UHGV virus genome: UHGV-0060989
DNA: 16,644 nucleotides
From: a virus
Direction: 5' to 3' (one strand)
Positions 489 through 16,594 of this stretch are shown one piece after another. Position 1 is the stretch's first letter; each line of letters begins with the position of its first letter. The position numbers and the translations under genes were made by a program. The notes under the pieces were generated by a model. The model had not been told where the DNA came from. It saw only the letters and a program-made list of their open reading frames with translations, and ran no database searches.

Positions 489-730
489 GTCTTACCCCCA
501 ATAAGGGGATTTGCTCTATTTAATTAGGAATAAGGTCGATTACTGATAGAACAAATCCAGGCTACTGTGTTTAGTAATCAGATTTGTTCGTGACCGATAT
601 GCACGGGCAAAACGGCAGGAGGTTGTTAGCGCAACCTCATGCCGCCCGCTTTCACGAAGATCATGTGTAGAAGGCCGCAGCATAACTATCACTGATGAAT
701 TCAGGATAGCCAGTGGCTACGGCTCAGTTA

Positions 731-806
731 TGGTGCTGGTTAACGGACTTGAACCGCTACCCATTCGCTTACAAGGCGACTGCTCTACCATTGGAGCTAA
801 ACCAGC
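731..806 (-). tRNA. tRNA-like gene, probably tRNA-Thr (anticodon UGU), 76 nt with encoded CCA
   Basis: Minus-strand sequence GCTGGTT-TA-GCTC-CAATGGTA-GAGC-A-GTCGC-CTTGTAA-GCGAA-TGGGT-AGCGG-TTCAAGT-CCGTT-AACCAGC-A-CCA folds by hand into a cloverleaf. It has a perfect 7 bp acceptor stem, GG in the D-loop, a TTCAAGT T-loop and a 7 nt anticodon loop with U33 and anticodon TGT. Confidence 0.6.
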
Positions 807-811
807 ATATT

Positions 812-886
812 TGGCGGGACAGCGTGGACTCGAACCACGATAAGAAGGTTAACAGCCTTCCGTAATGACCTTTATACGACTGACCC
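812..886 (-). tRNA. tRNA-like gene, probably tRNA-Asn (anticodon GUU), 75 nt with encoded CCA; one acceptor-stem mismatch
   Basis: Minus-strand sequence GGGTCAG-TC-GTAT-AAAGGTCA-TTAC-G-GAAGG-CTGTTAA-CCTTC-TTAT-CGTGG-TTCGAGT-CCACG-CTGTCCC-G-CCA. The anticodon stem and T-arm are perfect 5 bp helices and the T-loop GGTTCGAGTCC resembles E. coli tRNA-Asn. The acceptor stem has a T-T mismatch at pair 4-69. Confidence 0.5.
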
Positions 887-932
887 AAATAAAAAAAGCC
901 ACCGTTGCAACTTAAGAGTCACTAACGGCAGC
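887..932 (-). terminator. Candidate tR'-like intrinsic terminator (hairpin plus U7 tract) between Q and the tRNA genes
   Basis: Minus-sense GCUGCCGUU-(17 nt loop)-AACGGUGGC followed by UUUUUUUAUUU forms a 9 bp stem with two G-U pairs. The loop is long, so this is tentative. Confidence 0.35.
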
Positions 933-942
933 TTACCTTCTA

Positions 943-972
943 ATTATGGCTAAATGGCTAATTGCATGTCAA
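943..972 (-). promoter_or_regulatory. Candidate late promoter pR' (-35 TTGACA, 18 bp spacer, -10 CATAAT) overlapping the 3' end of Q
   Basis: Minus-sense TTGACAtgcaattagccatttagcCATAAT. Its position directly downstream of Q and upstream of the hairpin/U-tract fits a short late leader. Based on motif reading only. Confidence 0.35.
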
Positions 973-1468
973 GGCTTTTAACAGCAACATGCTTAACTTT
1001 CTCAACACGTTTACGCATTTTGAAAGCATTTTGCATTGGCTGGTATAAAACAAATAATGACGCTTTCAGGATGTCGTCAATTTCGTTTCTACAGGTTGCC
1101 AGTGAAGGTTTTCTCCATCCCTCGCCACCACGTCCACACATCTTGCGTGGCTTTGCAGTCGCGTGATAGTAGGATGCAATTGCTCGCTTAGATGAACCAT
1201 GAGCGTAGTAGCTGAGGAGGATGCCAAAGGCTTTTTTGTCAATGTACATGACGGAATCGACGACCTGAGAAATCAACATTCCATCATCATCATTGCACAT
1301 TGGCCTTGTCATAACTCTTCCCGGCTCTACGCTCTCCATGAACTTCGCTATTACGCTGCTCATGCGCTTTTCCAGACGACCTGAATAAACCCATGCGCCC
1401 CACAGTTCAAGCCAGCCATTCAGCCACTCGTGCTGCTCTTTGGTGAGGTTTAGTTCTCTTATGCCCAT
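950..1468 (-). CDS. Q: Late-gene antiterminator Q (non-lambda allele, Phage_antitermQ family)
   Basis: 172 aa ORF containing the ELWGAW motif and cysteine/histidine-rich segments. It sits between ninI and the lysis genes, has a GGGAGAAGG ribosome-binding site, and is not the lambda Q sequence. Confidence 0.8.
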
Positions 1469-2130: not shown

Positions 2131-2314
2131 CTCTTTCACTCCATCCGCGATGAACCATGAGAACGTCGTTGACGATGGCGTGCATTTTCCCGTCTTTATC
2201 ATCAACGTATTTTCTGACCGTACCGCGACTACATTTCAGTCTGCGTGCTACTTCTGTCTGGTTTCCGTATGCTTCAACGAGCATGTCTGGAATGGTTTTT
2301 ACTGAGAACGTCAT
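2108..2314 (-). CDS. ninH: NinH
   Basis: 68 aa [39 protein letters not shown]... matches my recollection of lambda NinH. The start overlaps the ninG stop (ATGA). Confidence 0.85.
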
Positions 2315-2913
2315 GCGGCCTCACTTCTGCTATTTCGCAGGTCTTTGAGTTTCTGCTGATACTCCGCCTTGATGGCCCTGCACTCTTCGACAGTCCAGCG
2401 ATGGCGGTTATGGTTTGATTCGATTTCGTCTACTGCTTCCTGCCCGATGCGATTAATCAGTTCGACGCGATACGGAACGAGATTTCCGCTTTTGTGCTGG
2501 TTGCACACCACGCATTGCTTGTGAATATTGCGTTCATCAAATCGGAGTTGAGGTGCCGCAGCAGTTGTCCGGTAATGTCCGGCATCCCACTGAGCAGACG
2601 TGAGCGTTCCGCACGAGATACATGGTAAGTCGCGGTCTCTTTCTCTGATGAAGGCGTTTACGGCTTGTTGGGCTTGTTTAATCCAGTAACTGCGGGGCTT
2701 TAAGGCGAGTTTTCGAATCTTCAGTTTATCTTTCTGTTTCTGCTCCTCTCGTCGTCGTTTCTTCTCTGCTGCTTTTTCCGCTTTTTCGCGTTCTTTACTT
2801 CGTCGTTCGAGTGCTATCTTGGTTCCACAAATCTCATTACACCAATATTGATTTTGATATTTTGGTATAAACCATTCATTGCAACATTTACATTTCCTTC
2901 GATAGATTCGCAT
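2311..2913 (-). CDS. ninG: NinG / Rap (recombination-associated protein), divergent N-terminus with its own start
   Basis: From the Met at 2913 the product is [58 protein letters not shown]..., collinear with lambda NinG after its first ~10 residues. A strong AAGGAG site lies 5 nt upstream of this ATG. The 220 aa track ORF is an upstream extension. Confidence 0.85.
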
Positions 2914-3454
2914 AAGTGCTCCTTTCGTTGCCGGAAAAATCACCGTAATACTTATCTCGGGCTTCTTCAGCAACTAGTACCGCTAACTCCAGATCATCAA
3001 AGCATCCGAAGTGTTTACTCTTGCCATGGAAACCTAGCCTAACATTCCATTTTTTCTGTCGTTTGTGCCAAGTAACTCCTCTGCAACCTGATTTGCTATT
3101 CTTTCGGATCCTTATATTTCTTGAATTTTCTATTGGCAGGCATTCTCTTAAATTTTCTGGCCTATTGTCGGTCCTAATTCCATTAACGTGGTCAATTTGA
3201 CCAGCAGGCCAACGATTATGAGTTATGTAAAAAACTAAGACGTGAGTTTTATATCTACGCCCATCTATCATGATCATTGAATAACCGTTGGAATCAAAAG
3301 TTCCAGCAACACTATTTAATGCTATCCTTCCCTGAGTGGGAACTTTCCATCTAAATACCCCGGTAGATTTATCGAAACTTAGTAACTCAAATATCCTTTT
3401 AACAGTTAAATCTTCTCTTTTACGGTTACATCGTCTTCGCGCTGGTTTAGCCAT
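2888..3454 (-). CDS. HNH homing endonuclease with C-terminal AP2 DNA-binding domain, fused in frame to the first ~10 codons of lambda-type ninG
   Basis: The product starts MAKPARRRC, identical to the lambda NinG N-terminus, then continues ...[23 protein letters not shown]...[23 protein letters not shown] (HNH_3 motif) and ...[49 protein letters not shown] (AP2-like). The body is AT-rich relative to its flanks. Confidence 0.8.
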
Positions 3455-3641
3455 CATCTTCTTCCTCGTGCATCGAGCTATTCGAATCGCTCATCAGCTC
3501 TGCACAGCAGTACTCACACACGTGAACTTCCAGCACATGCAACTTCTGACCGCAGTTAGCGCACGTTAAAGCCCGCTCGACGCTTTCTTGTTCGTAACTT
3601 CGATTTGGGTCAATCACCTTGTTTTCCTCATGCGGTTCCAT
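3447..3641 (-). CDS. ninF: NinF
   Basis: The C-terminal 64 aa of the 153 aa track ORF, from Met90: [64 protein letters not shown]. This resembles lambda NinF, and its stop overlaps the ninG-type start as in lambda. Confidence 0.7.
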   Translation of the reverse strand: MEPHEENKVIDPNRSYEQESVERALTCANCGQKLHVLEVHVCEYCCAELMSDSNSSMHEEEDDG

Positions 3642-4440: not shown

Positions 4441-5817
4441 TCATACGTCAGCCCCTTGTGCATATCGTCTGCCACGTGCAGCAGGTGCATTTGATGTTGT
4501 GCAAATCTGTCTGGCTTCATCCTGGTCACATGCAACAAAGTGTCCGTTGCAGAACCGCTGGTAAACCGTACCAAGCGAGCCAAAACGGTTTTTCGTCACG
4601 ATGATTTCAGCAAATGGCGCGGCGCTACTGTTCTCGTCATATACCGCTTCCCGATAGAGCATGATGATTGAGTCTGCGTCCTGTTCAATGCTTCCAGAAT
4701 CACGCAAATCTGCGTTTGTCGGGCGTTTGTTTGGTCGCTTCTCAACATCGCGCGAAAGCTGACTCAGGGAGATAACAGGCGTTTTCAGGTCTTTCGCCAT
4801 CGCCTTCAGGCTTCCGGAGATGTGAGCAATTGCGAGGTCGTTGCGATCTGCTTTCGGCTTCTCAATCAGGCCAAGATAATCCGCCATGATGAGTGACAGG
4901 TTTGGATTTTCCTGTTTATGCCGTTCTGCGATTGAGCGTATTTCTTCGACCGATAACCGCGAGGCATCGACTACCCATACATCCAAATCTGCAAGCTGAC
5001 TCATGCCGTTAGCAACACGCGCCCAGCCTTCGTCATCCATCGATGCAGGATTTCGCAGTACGCTAACCGACATCCTCCCGGCGTTGGCAATGCTTCGCTC
5101 TGCAATCTGCAATGCGCTCATTTCCATTGAGAAAATCAATACTCCGCGCCGGACGTCAGAACCAGGAATAACGCGGCTTGCAACACCTTCGGCAATCTTC
5201 AGCGCCAGCTCGGTTTTCCCCATACCAGGACGAGCAGCGATTATCACCAGGTCTTCCGCGTTCATCCCTCCGGTGATGGCGTCAAGTTCTTCGATTCCGG
5301 TCTTCAGGGTATCTGATTCCTCTCCGTTCCTCAGACGCCTGTCAAGCGTGTCAGTGTAGTCAGTGATGATTTCCCCTAACCGTACAGGTTTAACCTCGTC
5401 ACGGGGCTTTCTGATGGCTGAAAGACGCTTTACAAGCTCGTCCATCGCCTGACTCGATGTATCGATGGTTCCGCTCTGAATTGGTTCACGCATTTCATCC
5501 ATGATTTCCAGCACCAGACGGCGGTGATAGTTATCCGCGACCATTCCGGCATATCCCTTCAGGTTTGCGGCACTCGGGCAGTTCTTACTGGTCATCAGGA
5601 TTGACGTGAAATGCTCCTCTCCGCACGCCTCGGCAACCATCAGCGCGTCGATTAGGTTTCTGTTTCTCGCCTGCTTACGGATAACTTCGAAGGCTTTCCT
5701 GTAGAGCGGAATTGAAAACGCTTCCGGCTCAAGCGTTGCCAGAACGTCACTGGCGGTTGGAGTTAATCCACCAATCAGCAGGCCACCGATAACGCTCGCT
5801 TCGATATCCTGTCTCAT
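4441..5817 (-). CDS. Replicative DNA helicase (DnaB family, P22 gene 12-like)
   Basis: 458 aa ORF with Walker A ([12 protein letters not shown]), a DnaB-like N-terminal domain and RecA-like core motifs. It follows the O-like gene with an ATGA overlap. Confidence 0.9.
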
Positions 5818-10413: not shown

Positions 10414-10725
10414 ATGATGATTCTGACTCTGAATGATAAGCGTGAAATATCGCAAATAATCGCAAGTTTTACTGATGAAGATTACGAGCGAATCAACAGT
10501 GAAGTTGATCGCCTCTGCAAACGTTGCGACCCAATAAGCGAAATGCTTCGCTCATATAAACCAGATGAACACACTAAGGACGCTATCGACTGGTTGGAAG
10601 ATGATGACTGTAACTATCAGGAAAAAGCCGCTGAATGGTTCTGGGATGCAATAACCGAAAGAGTTAAGGCTGAATATGCCTTCGCAATATTCAAACGCAG
10701 ACACATTTATGGAGAAGCAGCATGA
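10414..10725 (+). CDS. Hypothetical acidic protein (103 aa) at the gam/abc position upstream of recT
   Basis: ORF with an AGGAG ribosome-binding site. Its stop overlaps the recT start. No family recognised. Confidence 0.6.
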   Translation: MMILTLNDKREISQIIASFTDEDYERINSEVDRLCKRCDPISEMLRSYKPDEHTKDAIDWLEDDDCNYQEKAAEWFWDAITERVKAEYAFAIFKRRHIYGEAA

Positions 10726-11633
10726 GCAATATCGTTGAATTCGTTAAACAGCAGGAGCAGTTATTCTGCGGAGCATTGACTGAACAGACGGTGACATGGG
10801 CTAAGGAAAGCCAGTTTGCAATTCAGTATTTCCAGAAAAATGATTACCTTGCTAAAACGGCACTGGCAAATCCAACCAGCGCACAGAACGCCATCATCAA
10901 TGTTGCGGCGATCGGCATCACCTTAAACCCGGCCAGCAAACTTGCTTATCTAGTTCCGCGCGACGGCATGGTTTGCCTTGATATCAGTTATATGGGATTG
11001 CTCCATATTGCAATGGAGTCTGGTGTTATCTCATGGGGTCAGGCAAAACTTGTTCATGCTAACGATACCTATGAGTCAAACGGGCTTGATAAAGCACCAA
11101 CCCATAAATACAACGCCTTCGGTGATCGTGGTGATATCGTTGGCGTTTACTGCACAGTTAAGACGCCAGCAGGTGATTATCTAACGGAAGAGATGAGTCT
11201 GGCTGAAATTGAGGCTGTAAGGAAAACAAGCAAGGCAGCATTCAGCGATAAAGGACCATGGGTAAATCACTGGAATGAGATGGCGCGAAAGACGGTCGTA
11301 AAGCGTGCAAGCAAGTATTGGCCTAAGGCATCACGTCTTGATAGTGCTATTCACGTACTAAACGAAGAAGAAGGTGTGTGGACTGAACCAGTTATGCCGC
11401 ACAAATCAGAGGAAGATATCCGCGAAGATGAACGGAAACGCCAGCAGGAAATAATGGATAAAGCACAACTTCTTTGTGATGAAATGGATCAGGCAGAAAA
11501 CATTGATGATTTGAAGCGATATTTTGCAGAAGCATATCGCCTGACATCTGGAATGAAATTGCAGCAGAACGTACAAGCCATTTACATAGAATGCAAAGCG
11601 AAACTGGAGGTTGCCAGTGAGCAAACTGTATGA
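10722..11633 (+). CDS. recT: RecT-family single-strand annealing recombinase
   Basis: 303 aa; the segment GPWVNHWNEMARKTVVKRASKYWPKA matches the conserved RecT core (compare Rac RecT GPWVTHWEEMAKKTAIRRLFKYLP). Confidence 0.85.
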   Translation: MSNIVEFVKQQEQLFCGALTEQTVTWAKESQFAIQYFQKNDYLAKTALANPTSAQNAIINVAAIGITLNPASKLAYLVPRDGMVCLDISYMGLLHIAMESGVISWGQAKLVHANDTYESNGLDKAPTHKYNAFGDRGDIVGVYCTVKTPAGDYLTEEMSLAEIEAVRKTSKAAFSDKGPWVNHWNEMARKTVVKRASKYWPKASRLDSAIHVLNEEEGVWTEPVMPHKSEEDIREDERKRQQEIMDKAQLLCDEMDQAENIDDLKRYFAEAYRLTSGMKLQQNVQAIYIECKAKLEVASEQTV

Positions 11634-15330: not shown

Positions 15331-15546
15331 TACTTGACACTTCAGGAGTGGAACGCTCGCCAACGACGCCCAAGAAGCCTTGAAACAGTTCGTCGATGGG
15401 TACGCGAGTGCAGGATATTCCCTCCTCCGGTTAAGGATGGAAGAGAGTATCTGTTCCACGAATCAGCGGTAAAGGTTGACTTAAATCGACCAGTAACAGG
15501 TAGCCTTTTGAAGAGGATCAGAAATGGGAAGAAGGCGAAGTCATGA
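15328..15546 (+). CDS. xis: Excisionase Xis (lambda-type)
   Basis: 72 aa MYLTLQEWNARQRRPRSLETVRRWVRECRIFPPPVKDGREYLFHESAVKVDLNRPVTGSLLKRIRNGKKAKS matches lambda Xis. Its 3' end overlaps the int start. Confidence 0.95.
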   Translation: MYLTLQEWNARQRRPRSLETVRRWVRECRIFPPPVKDGREYLFHESAVKVDLNRPVTGSLLKRIRNGKKAKS

Positions 15547-16594
15547 GCGCCGGGATTTACCCCCTAACCTTTATATAAGAAACAATGGATATTACTGCTA
15601 CAGGGACCCAAGGACGGGTAAAGAGTTTGGATTAGGCCGAGACAGGCGAATCGCAATCACTGAAGCCATACAGGCCAACATTGAGTTATTTTCAGGACAC
15701 AAACACAAGCCTCTGACAGCGAGAATCAACAGTGATAATTCCGTTACGTTACATTCATGGCTTGATCGCTACGAAAAAATCCTGGCCAGCAGAGGAATCA
15801 AGCAGAAGACACTCATAAATTACATGAGCAAAATTAAAGCAATAAGGAGGGGTCTGCCTGATGCTCCACTTGAAGACATCACCACAAAAGAAATTGCGGC
15901 AATGCTCAATGGATACATAGACGAGGGCAAGGCGGCGTCAGCCAAGTTAATCAGATCAACACTGAGCGATGCATTCCGAGAGGCAATAGCTGAAGGCCAT
16001 ATAACAACAAACCCTGTCGCTGCCACTCGCGCAGCAAAATCAGAGGTAAGGAGATCAAGACTTACGGCTGACGAATACCTGAAAATTTATCAAGCAGCAG
16101 AATCATCACCATGTTGGCTCAGACTTGCAATGGAACTGGCTGTTGTTACCGGGCAACGAGTTGGTGATTTATGCGAAATGAAGTGGTCTGATATCGTAGA
16201 TGGATATCTTTATGTCGAGCAAAGCAAAACAGGCGTAAAAATTGCCATCCCAACAGCATTGCATGTTGATGCTCTCGGAATATCAATGAAGGAAACACTT
16301 GATAAATGCAAAGAGATTCTTGGCGGAGAAACCATAATTGCATCTACTCGTCGCGAACCGCTTTCATCCGGCACAGTATCAAGGTATTTTATGCGCGCAC
16401 GAAAAGCATCAGGTCTTTCCTTCGAAGGGGATCCGCCTACCTTTCACGAGTTGCGCAGTTTGTCTGCAAGACTCTATGAGAAGCAGATAAGCGATAAGTT
16501 TGCTCAACATCTTCTCGGGCATAAGTCGGACACCATGGCATCACAGTATCGTGATGACAGAGGCAGGGAGTGGGACAAAATTGAAATCAAATAA
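15524..16594 (+). CDS. int: Integrase Int (lambda-type tyrosine recombinase)
   Basis: 356 aa MGRRRSHERRDLPPNLYIRNNGYYCYRDPRTGKEFGLGRDRRIAITEAIQANIELFSGHKHKPL... matches lambda Int, including the catalytic C-terminal domain (HELRSLSARLY...LLGHKSDTMASQY). Confidence 0.97.
   Translation: MGRRRSHERRDLPPNLYIRNNGYYCYRDPRTGKEFGLGRDRRIAITEAIQANIELFSGHKHKPLTARINSDNSVTLHSWLDRYEKILASRGIKQKTLINYMSKIKAIRRGLPDAPLEDITTKEIAAMLNGYIDEGKAASAKLIRSTLSDAFREAIAEGHITTNPVAATRAAKSEVRRSRLTADEYLKIYQAAESSPCWLRLAMELAVVTGQRVGDLCEMKWSDIVDGYLYVEQSKTGVKIAIPTALHVDALGISMKETLDKCKEILGGETIIASTRREPLSSGTVSRYFMRARKASGLSFEGDPPTFHELRSLSARLYEKQISDKFAQHLLGHKSDTMASQYRDDRGREWDKIEIK

Follow-up and report, generated by a model that had tools for sequence, protein, structure and literature searches.

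A probable free-standing homing endonuclease cassette, with its own divergent ninG start, in the first part of the ninG gene of lambda-like phages

We analyzed a window of 16,644 nt from the virus genome UHGV-0060989 (the whole stretch of DNA under study), in which ninF, an endonuclease gene, and ninG follow one another on the - strand; all coordinates are those of the + strand. ninF (3447..3617) begins with GTG and encodes 56 aa (Pfam NinF, E 1e-11), with a translation that equals lambda NinF save for a few residues. Its stop overlaps the start of the endonuclease open reading frame (ORF; 2888..3457, supported by Pfam, PHROG, an AlphaFold2 model, and Foldseek), and its last codons hold the ribosome-binding site that serves this ORF, a Shine-Dalgarno region reading GAGGAAGAAG (3458..3467). 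The endonuclease is 189 aa long from its first ATG and 188 aa from the second (3454), and comprises an HNH_3 catalytic module (3134..3253, YKTHVLV...) followed by an AP2-type DNA-binding domain of three strands and a helix (2942..3088). A complete ninG/rap gene of 200 aa (2311..2913) lies downstream, and its first part is a divergent, AT-rich 5' tract (2830..2913) linked to the endonuclease. The G+C content was 0.39 in the endonuclease body, 0.30 in the divergent tract, and 0.50 in ninF and the remainder of ninG.

The endonuclease ORF opens with codons that belong to ninG. Bases 3454..3426 (ATGGCTAAACCAGCGCGAAGACGATGTAA) match lambda ninG at 29/29 nt, an exact match that rules out chance, and represent codons 1 to 9 plus 2 nt of a lambda-type ninG (MAKPARRRC; 3426..3454), now serving as the 5' end of the endonuclease ORF. 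The ninF stop overlaps this leader as it does in lambda (GATGATGGCTAA), and an additional in-frame ATG at 3457..3455 is also the same in lambda. These features bear out the original prediction, made from the sequence alone, that the ORF begins with the lambda ninG start. The proposed invasion of ninG would have fallen had MAKPARRRC been the native N-terminus of this endonuclease family; the leader was, however, missing from 14 distant homologues (32-47% identity), which start about 15 residues later at a conserved L-x-x-x-L-R-x-L-L-x-Y-D-P-x-T-G-V-F-R-W block. The leader ATGs are the only in-frame ATG, GTG, or TTG codons before endonuclease codon 61, and the endonuclease is therefore dependent on the ninG start signals. 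GAGGAAGAAG is the leftmost stretch common to all cassette copies and is shared even by those that have no ninF upstream; in 37 loci with a non-ninF upstream region (AU6Stx1 type), identity to the window starts at GGAGGAAGAAG.

ninG itself starts anew within the end of the endonuclease gene. Its ATG at 2913 precedes the endonuclease stop (2890..2888), giving an overlap of 26 nt, and an AAGGAG Shine-Dalgarno site (2924..2919) sits 5 nt upstream of this ATG, inside the endonuclease coding sequence, as had been proposed. The 200-aa product matched Pfam NinG (PF05766) with E 4e-85 and 284.9 bits over profile positions 5-192 of 193 (188/193), retained all four N-terminal cysteines, and was intact in 47/52 related loci where no contig end cuts ninG off, so that the downstream gene, far from lacking a usable start, is full length with start signals of its own. 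From 2829 on, it is ~98% identical to lambda. The first 111 ninG alignment columns, tract included, showed 57-60% identity to every other ninG allele class. More generally, the first ~110 nt of ninG are hypervariable among lambdoid phages, beside a central core of 300 nt in which lambda, Stx-type, and P22-type phages agree at 96-100% of positions.

A three-way alignment of the window, lambda, and AU6Stx1 resolved both junctions. The left junction, originally put near 3425, falls between 3426 and 3425, directly after CGATGTAA, and the right junction, for which the original prediction gave no position, falls between 2830 and 2829, where homology picks up again at TGTGGAACCAAG. Between them, a block of 596 nt (2830..3425), consisting of the endonuclease body and a foreign ninG 5' end, stands in place of 64 nt of lambda-type ninG (AAACGATGAATG[C/T]CGGGAATGG...TCTCCAGAG), namely codons 10-31 of lambda ninG, which encode the zinc-binding CxxC...CxxC region. 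The insert-free comparison set consisted of lambda and a further 80 alleles (IMG/VR loci). Among the 12 best-matching insert-free loci listed, homology to the window by local BLAST ended at 3426 in 11 and resumed at 2829 in all 12. The locus is thus a presence/absence polymorphism at a single site, at which the breakpoints of insert-free alleles (lambda and the IMG/VR loci) are common to the carriers. Alignment with lambda and insert-free genomes supports the proposed invasion of ninG by an endonuclease gene, although not as a simple insertion, since 64 nt were replaced by 596. No isogenic empty-site twin of the prophage was present among the 80 IMG/VR loci, where the best partners were good on one side only, and the 515 nt of the non-ninF upstream context occurred only in the carrier phages AU6Stx1 and SH2026Stx1, with no insert-free counterpart.

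An imperfect direct repeat recurs at the two ninG starts. The left copy, CGAAGACGATGTAA (3426..3439), encodes the lambda-type codons RRRC-K, and the right copy, CGAAGGAAATGTAA (2888..2901), encodes RRKC-K of the imported ninG and contains the endonuclease stop codon; 11/14 positions match. The right copy is close to the Stx-phage form CGAAGGAAATGCAA, and the two copies are homologous ninG codons of two different alleles, rather than a fresh target-site duplication.

This arrangement could bring to mind a self-splicing element of ninG, with the ORF inside an intron or intein and mature NinG arising only after splicing of the RNA or protein: like some intron ORFs, this one continues the reading frame of the ninG codons before it, and removing the 538 nt between the two ATGTAA copies would leave an in-frame nin reading frame. 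However, Rfam, including its group I and group II introns, gave no match in 2700..3600 at E <= 1, and the flanking RNA folds like shuffled sequence (z-scores of 0.21 and -0.47 for the junction regions). At its 3' end, the endonuclease frame is one base off that of ninG and ends in a stop codon, making an intein impossible, and the downstream ninG is full length by Pfam without splicing, behind its own Shine-Dalgarno site and ATG. We regard splicing as exceedingly improbable and the gene as free-standing, neither intron nor intein, in agreement with the original prediction. Hairpins over the two ribosome-binding sites, as in T4 endonucleases, were likewise not detected, the folds being no better than shuffled sequence by these z-scores. 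An Rfam scan of the whole window returned two tRNAs only.

Functional annotation of the endonuclease was based on profile searches and a structural model. The HNH_3 assignment (PF13392, aa 69-108) was well above the Pfam cut-off (E 4.2e-11; 42.7 bits versus 24.8), and AP2 (PF00847, aa 124-172), the second domain anticipated, scored under its cut-off (E 1.8e-4; 22.1 bits versus 33.3) and was recognized by its modeled fold; in a sequence search of the PDB, the AP2 region matched WRI1 alone (E 0.19). PHROG 99, 'HNH endonuclease', matched with E 1.4e-71, and no NCBIfam model matched either the endonuclease or NinG. The catalytic pattern D-H ... N-L-R ... N is in place, with D88, H89, N101, L102, R103, and N110 invariant in an alignment of 15 sequences (the endonuclease and the 14 distant homologues). 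In the AlphaFold2 model (pLDDT 87.8), the best Foldseek matches were I-HmuI for the N-terminal half and plant AP2 domains for the C-terminal half. I-HmuI (1u3e) was the top PDB match, with a probability of 1.00, a weak E-value of 0.012, and a TM of 0.37-0.40, and the model contains a predicted beta-beta-alpha-metal fold. The modeled AP2 region (strands 127-130, 135-142, and 145-152; helix 155-173) superposes on AtERF1 1gcc with an rmsd of 1.3 A over 51 columns (TM 0.67), and TEM1 and WRI1 also matched it with a probability of 1.00; despite the sub-threshold Pfam score, the model thus predicts an AP2-like, three-stranded sheet packed on one helix. The HNH_3 group has been described as homing endonucleases with AP2 as a DNA-binding module (PMC5714182). 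An HK97 gp74-type, terminase-associated HNH protein was considered and rejected, given the position in the nin region between ninF and ninG and the HNH_3 plus AP2 family.

The cassette is common in Escherichia coli. The endonuclease body was found in 538/5426 complete E. coli genomes and the tract in 538/5426 too, that is, in about one-tenth of genomes, including O157:H7 strains such as EDL933; Stx1 phages carry it as well, and single E. coli genomes hold up to 3 copies. The sole apparent exception to linkage was an IS2 insertion in the tract, adjoining the endonuclease. Over the 496 nt of the endonuclease body, identity was 99% or higher in all 538 E. coli matches. Nucleotide diversity was 0.001-0.012 across the endonuclease and tract and 0.3-0.44 upstream, and it was at background level just downstream. 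A co-conversion gradient to the right of the tract was considered and rejected, as diversity reached the non-carrier background within the first 50 nt.

Carriers occur in many flanking backgrounds. In the 3' 500 nt of ninG they were interspersed among non-carrier alleles, with the nearest non-carrier 0-6 nt away in 42/52 carriers; the window was 1 nt from a non-carrier, and AU6Stx1 was 2 nt from VT2-Sakai. Several ninF variants were each present both with and without the cassette, and 37 of the 56 copies with an upstream read (55 IMG/VR loci and AU6Stx1) shared one Stx-type upstream context. The phylogeny of the element is at odds with that of its flanks, suggestive of lateral spread, and identity of at least 99% despite diverse flanks indicates recent, repeated transfer. 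Judged by sequence, a near-invariant cassette in varied flanks has the population signature of homing-type gene conversion.

The same distribution could come from frequent ordinary recombination among lambdoid prophages together with clonal expansion of their hosts. The cassette would then be a passive mosaic module, with an inactive or decaying HNH gene as passenger, spread by crossovers in the ninG core and by the expansion of clones such as O157 and O111. The near-invariant central 300 nt of ninG is an ideal crossover zone for such exchange, a single Stx-type context accounts for most sampled copies, and the endonuclease polymorphisms (12 non-synonymous, 11 synonymous) are near 1:1, which indicates weak purifying selection at most. 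However, a decaying passenger should have frameshifts or deletions more often, and the endonuclease ORF was intact in 55/58 loci, with all catalytic residues retained; the near-identity of all 538 E. coli matches in diverse flanks also speaks against passive carriage, which we consider unlikely.

The divergent tract most likely represents the native start of a foreign ninG allele that was imported with the endonuclease, rather than a newly evolved restart. An N-terminus of the form MRxxRRxC is a natural one for NinG, being MRKVRRRC in phage Emek and MRKIRRRC in P0042, and because the tract's start resembles that of this natural allele class (MRKVRRRC, Emek), we favor import over invention. In searches for a donor of the tract, a word-indexed search yielded nothing beyond fragments of this allele from E. 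coli, and exhaustive HMMER of 1.84 billion representatives gave at best 51-59% identity outside the lambda-type allele (P0042, P0053, and P0044). By tblastn of phage records, the tract was seen only beside the endonuclease; no insert-free allele with the tract was found, and the single partial-tract match, H220, was an IS2 insertion beside the endonuclease. A search of 5.8 billion proteins for an endonuclease donor gave no relative between 99% and 44% identity. In a carrier, the lambda-type site is broken after codon 9 and the ninG 5' region that holds the working tract is only 57-60% identical to other alleles; the tract is a candidate cleavage-resistant version of the target.

From the anatomy, junctions, linkage, domain architecture, and scatter over genetic backgrounds that we observed, we infer that this is probably a free-standing homing endonuclease cassette aimed at the ninG 5' end of lambda-like phages. 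The predicted enzyme, which pairs an HNH catalytic module like that of I-HmuI with a DNA-binding domain of the AP2 type, would rely for its translation on the start codon of ninG and on the ribosome-binding site at the end of ninF; under these start signals, its synthesis would accompany expression of the nin operon following infection or induction. It would then nick or cut an insert-free ninG within or beside the 64 nt that the cassette replaces. Enzymes of the I-HmuI type are nickases, and replication would therefore be needed to reach a double-strand break. A phage that bears the cassette and resides in the same cell would serve as the template for repair, with recombination in ninF to the left and in near-invariant central ninG to the right, and the endonuclease would be copied in together with the divergent 5' tract of ninG. 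The new carrier would be protected against its own enzyme by the interruption of its lambda-type site after codon 9 and by the very different sequence of its working ninG 5' part, and ninG would be kept functional because the cassette supplies a complete alternative start (Shine-Dalgarno site, ATG, and four cysteines). Since the cut sites of free-standing endonucleases are often remote from the genes that encode them (PMC2988022), the target may be outside the replaced 64 nt.

As to origin, the endonuclease may formerly have preceded an intact ninG directly, in a relative rich in A+T, and may have reached a lambda-type ninG through one-sided repair that was homologous at the right end and illegitimate at the left. 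Such an event would have joined it in frame to codons 1 to 9 of the recipient, and the duplicated RRRC/RRKC codons would be its by-product. No donor lineage that would support this history emerged from the searches, either for the endonuclease (the next best relative being 44% identical) or for the tract. The junctions may likewise be read as a scar, in which one-sided illegitimate entry may have left the duplicated RRRC/RRKC codons behind; it is doubtful, if conceivable, that the left junction (3426|3425) also marks the cut in lambda-type ninG, that lambda is a natural target, and that the hypervariable ninG 5' end reflects an arms race between endonuclease and escape. Precedents are collected in a review (PMC2988022), which covers intronless homing, marker exclusion, the one-sided illegitimate repair of breaks, and the splitting of host genes by endonuclease genes.

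The enzyme could instead be a domesticated competition nuclease that damages co-infecting or co-induced lambdoid rivals with a lambda-type ninG, through marker exclusion or some other benefit to its own phage, with self-copying as a side effect. ninG/rap, in the nin region, is dispensable for lambda growth, and cutting it may therefore harm a rival little, except where the break as such kills. In T4, free-standing endonucleases are known to cause marker exclusion (PMC2988022), the T-even SegB is reported to benefit its phage (PMC13096335), and E. coli often carries several lambdoid prophages, with up to 3 copies of this gene in one genome. Sequence data cannot separate such a nuclease from homing, as the first steps are mechanistically the same; overall, we think this role quite improbable, and homing remains our preferred reading.

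The cassette would then be no new kind of element, but a clean and common example of the known free-standing phage homing endonucleases, as far as its sequence goes. In our literature search, the element was not described and no paper joined an HNH endonuclease, NinG, and Stx. Homing endonucleases have been studied mainly in virulent T4-like phages and their role in temperate lambdoid phages is little explored, even as lambdoid phages are the classic case of mosaic genome evolution. The locus illustrates how a selfish gene can find a way into a coding region without killing it, by seizing the start signals and supplying a substitute 5' end. If active, the enzyme would help to account for an abrupt mosaic boundary within the nin region, and it could influence recombination between Stx and non-Stx prophages. 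Because the short candidate target region lies in lambda itself, homing, co-conversion, and self-protection are testable by standard lambda genetics; were the scar and arms-race readings true, temperate lambdoid phages would gain their first homing system amenable to experiment, in which wild-type lambda has the susceptible allele.

Several known systems share parts of this design. The free-standing HNH enzymes of T-even phages (T4 mobE near nrdB, Aeh1 mobE inside nrdA, and T4 mobA in gene 60/39) are also stand-alone ORFs and, as in the 'intronless homing' of SegF and SegG, sit in or at a conserved phage DNA-metabolism gene that is kept functional; the one site is occupied in some related phages and empty in others, and flanking sequence travels with them (PMC2988022). 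Their hosts are virulent T4-like phages, whereas the ninG cassette resides in temperate lambdoid phages and prophages, and its catalytic module is, by sequence, probably HNH_3/I-HmuI-like with AP2 rather than of the Mob type. Unlike the T-even split genes, which need reassembly, ninG gives nine codons to the endonuclease and receives a complete substitute 5' end. In phage epsilon34 (lambdoid, P22-like), gene 31 similarly has the N-terminus of eaE fused in frame to a putative HNH homing endonuclease, but it lies in the early left operon, involves another host gene and an endonuclease lineage with Lactobacillus phage relatives, and is described with no replacement 5' end for the host gene (PMC2629481). 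HNH-AP2 endonucleases of Jersey-like Salmonella phages, T5-like phages, and others (for example, SETP13 and vB_SenS_AG11 gp58) have the same two domains and 40-44% identity over residues 16-174; unlike the ninG cassette, these genes lie in virulent phages beside lysis or other genes, with their own starts and no link to ninG. I-HmuI and I-HmuII of the Bacillus phages SPO1 and SP82 (1u3e) belong to the same Pfam HNH_3/His-Me finger group 2 (PMC5714182). The gene for I-HmuI lies within a group I intron, and its product has a helix-turn-helix C-terminal domain, in contrast to the free-standing, AP2-bearing ninG endonuclease, and the two share 18% sequence identity over 109 aligned columns, together with the same D-H...N...N catalytic pattern in the N-terminal half, for which I-HmuI is the best structural match.

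The endonuclease ORF (2888..3457, minus strand; 189 aa via the first ATG, 188 aa via the second) opens, as originally predicted, with the lambda ninG start. The lambda-type leader ATGGCTAAACCAGCGCGAAGACGATGTAA (3454..3426, minus strand) comprises 29 nt from the second ATG, all identical to lambda ninG, and overlaps the ninF stop as in lambda. Identity to lambda is lost after CGATGTAA, where AT-rich sequence begins (GC 0.39, versus 0.50 in ninF and the remaining ninG). The two ninG ATGs are the only in-frame ATG, GTG or TTG codons ahead of codon 61, so translation of the endonuclease would rely on ninG's start and on a ribosome-binding site, GAGGAAGAAG, within the tail of ninF. MAKPARRRC was absent from all 14 distant homologues (32-47% identity), which begin ~15 residues later, at a conserved L-x-x-x-L-R-x-L-L-x-Y-D-P-x-T-G-V-F-R-W block, and residues 1-17 are without secondary structure in the structural model (mean pLDDT 65 for residues 1-10 and 84 for residues 11-20). 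Judged by these comparisons, the leader is borrowed from ninG and not native to the endonuclease family. In 37 carrier loci (ninG alleles with the endonuclease ORF and a divergent ninG 5' tract) of the AU6Stx1 type, which lack ninF upstream, identity to the window starts exactly at GGAGGAAGAAG.

This is the majority context: in the Stx1 phage AU6Stx1 (L001 1960..2474) and 36 other IMG/VR carrier loci, ~515 nt other than ninF precede the cassette, and the ninF tail is reduced to GGAGGAAGAAG. Within the phage collection this upstream stretch was confined to the two carrier phages, AU6Stx1 and SH2026Stx1. In some assemblies with this context the endonuclease is called as a 215-aa ORF (P0002) from an upstream in-frame ATG.

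Both breakpoints were defined by alignment of the window with lambda and AU6Stx1 and by local BLAST against 80 lambda-type insert-free IMG/VR loci. Among the 12 best-matching insert-free loci listed, left homology ended at 3426 in 11 and resumed at 2829, at TGTGGAACCAAG, in all 12; thus 596 nt (2830..3425) stand in for 64 nt in lambda-type ninG, namely codons 10-31, where its cysteine-rich N-terminal motif is encoded. The precise junction proposed near 3425 was recovered at 3426|3425; relative to the empty allele, sequence was replaced and not simply inserted. The 596 nt hold the endonuclease body and an 84-nt alternative ninG 5' end (0.30 GC).

Downstream, a complete 200-aa ninG begins at 2913 (minus strand), 26 nt ahead of the endonuclease stop, with its own AAGGAG (2924..2919, minus strand) 5 nt before the start. 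Its product matched nearly the whole Pfam NinG profile (E 4e-85) and the alternative 5' end retains four of four cysteines, so the locus is not simply a ninG without a usable start. An intron or intein, already discounted in the original prediction, was rejected: no Rfam match was found in 2700..3600 at E <= 1, the junction RNAs showed no folding advantage over shuffled controls, the endonuclease reading frame is closed by a stop codon and at its 3' end is out of register with that of ninG, and ninG needs no splicing. We regard this explanation as having practically no chance of being correct.

The 5' region holding the divergent tract had 57-60% DNA identity to each ninG class compared (lambda, the Stx phages VT2-Sakai and YYZ-2008, and the P22-like phages SE1 and Emek). 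The NinG of Salmonella phage Emek and a metagenomic NinG (P0042, N-terminus MRKIRRRC) indicate that ninG alleles with an M-R-x-x-R-R-x-C start, a residue shorter than MAKPARRRC, occur naturally as a class. The downstream ninG start was correctly anticipated; on the allele comparison it is probably the native start of a foreign allele and not a new restart.

Across the ninG 5' end (window 2803..2913, compared with ninG-bearing loci L002, L060, L061, L063 and L064), the first ~111 alignment columns were 55-79% identical between allele classes, and the next 300 nt were 96-100% identical among lambda, VT2-Sakai, YYZ-2008, Emek, SE1 and the carrier allele. This sharp intragenic mosaic boundary could reflect escape from endonucleases or simply modular exchange. 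AU6Stx1-type ninG has a 9-nt expansion, an EKA repeat (L001 about 3190..3200), with a 203-aa NinG in four carrier loci.

The endonuclease is flanked by an imperfect direct repeat (11/14), with the left copy CGAAGACGATGTAA (3439..3426, minus strand; RRRC-K codons) exactly of lambda type and the right copy CGAAGGAAATGTAA (2901..2888, minus strand; RRKC-K codons) one base off the Stx-phage form. The copies are thus homologous codons of two different ninG alleles brought next to each other, rather than a recent duplication of the target. Most simply, an AT-rich phage would once have carried the endonuclease immediately ahead of an intact ninG; its entry into a lambda-type ninG would then have combined homologous crossover on the right side with illegitimate joining at the left. 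Such one-sided events, with microhomology at the junctions, have been documented during intron homing in T4 (Parker et al. 1999, summarised in PMC2988022). Searches found no donor of the endonuclease, whose next relative is 44% identical, or of the divergent tract. In Emek, ninF and ninG (L063 447..626 and 601..1209) overlap by 26 nt, with the ninF TAA within the ninG Cys-Lys codons; overlap length and stop position match those of the window endonuclease. This likeness may be a coincidence forced by ninG codons, or the endonuclease C-terminal tail may derive from a donor ninF tail.

Of the two domains proposed, HNH_3 was confirmed by Pfam above threshold (42.7 bits, E 4e-11), and AP2 scored 22.1 bits, below its 33.3 threshold. 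The AlphaFold2 model was confident (pLDDT 87.8); I-HmuI is the best structural match of its N-terminal half, and the three C-terminal strands and their helix align structurally with plant AP2 domains (AtERF1, rmsd 1.3 A over 51 columns), with weak Foldseek E-values (0.01-0.1). D88, H89, N101 and N110 were invariant throughout the family alignment. The nearest phage relatives (40-44% identity) are annotated HNH homing endonucleases of Jersey-like and T5-like virulent phages, and I-HmuI and HNH_3 proteins form one homing endonuclease group with DNA-binding modules including AP2 (PMC5714182). Judged by sequence and model, the window protein is predicted to be an active homing endonuclease. A distant metagenomic homologue (P0005, 232 aa) carries a tandem pair of N-terminal region and HNH_3 module, without AP2. 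The gene is already annotated 'HNH endonuclease' in RefSeq genomes as well as in the phages AU6Stx1 and SH2026Stx1; our literature search found no paper analysing it.

Of 5426 complete E. coli genomes, 538 carried the endonuclease body, in every case at >=99% identity, and 538 carried the divergent tract, all of them on chromosomes; the sole partial tract without an adjacent match was an IS2 insertion into the tract, with the endonuclease right beside it. The exact protein was found on at least 1000 contigs, mostly E. coli with some Salmonella. Across 49 distinct sequences (48 related loci and the window), nucleotide diversity was 0.001-0.012 over endonuclease and tract and 0.3-0.44 upstream; downstream, carrier diversity equalled non-carrier diversity already in the first 50 nt past the tract. 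On the left flank, several ninF variants were each found in cassette carriers as well as in non-carriers, and the ninG 3' 500 nt of carriers fall into several clusters common to non-carriers. Over these 500 nt, 42 of 52 carriers had their nearest non-carrier at a distance of 0-6 nt; the window was 1 nt from a non-carrier and 3 nt from the closest carrier, and AU6Stx1 2 nt from VT2-Sakai. One near-invariant block thus occupies many backgrounds at identical junctions. Homing-type gene conversion would predict this distribution. Ordinary recombination of a passive mosaic module could also yield it, because the ninG core beside the tract is nearly identical among very different lambdoid phages; one Stx-type context accounts for most sampled copies, and endonuclease polymorphisms (12 non-synonymous to 11 synonymous) indicate only weak constraint. 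An intact endonuclease was present in 55 of 58 loci; for ninG the figure was 47 of 52, counting loci in which a contig end did not truncate it. We consider the passive module unlikely and a mainly competitive role, in exclusion, more doubtful still.

Homing as a whole is the likely explanation. Once the phage infects or is induced, translation of nin operon mRNA would yield the endonuclease from the ninG start; it would nick or cut a ninG lacking the insert, within or close to the 64 nt that the cassette replaces, and repair from the carrier genome would copy in the 596-nt block, with crossovers in ninF and the ninG core. The carrier would be protected by the splitting of the lambda-type site after codon 9 and the strong divergence of the functional ninG front end, while the imported start would keep ninG function.

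Endonuclease genes within host genes include mobE in Aeh1 nrdA and mobA in T4 gene 60/39 (PMC2988022), P22-like phage epsilon34 has a host-gene N-terminus fused in frame to an HNH homing endonuclease (PMC2629481), and endonuclease genes have been described where exchanged and unexchanged segments of phage genomes meet (PMC10055350). The cassette differs from known free-standing endonucleases in its temperate lambdoid host and its HNH_3-AP2 architecture; it has also taken over the start signals of its target gene and brings a complete replacement 5' end. The original finding is real and its interpretation supported; the cassette would be useful as a possible model for homing in lambda.

The nin region of the window runs, on the minus strand, ninB, ninD, ninE, ninF, the endonuclease ORF, ninG, ninH, a NinI-like phosphatase, Q, two tRNAs and a holin (ORF calls, Pfam and the lambda annotation). 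The tRNAs, tRNA-Thr(TGT) and tRNA-Asn(GTT), lie at 731..886 (minus strand), with the Q antiterminator gene on one side and the holin gene on the other; in Stx phages, tRNAs and toxin genes occupy this position. The window is a lambda-like prophage and, with gene identities taken from ORF translations only, an ordinary lambdoid mosaic (4441..5817, 10722..11633 and 15524..16594): besides a lambda-type integrase and nin region, it has genes for a putative DnaB-like replicative helicase and a RecT-like protein where lambda has P and bet. In E. coli Z1323CEC0014 (L062 597..2562; NZ_CP148426.1), IS2 is inserted in the divergent tract just 3' of the endonuclease gene and splits ninG.
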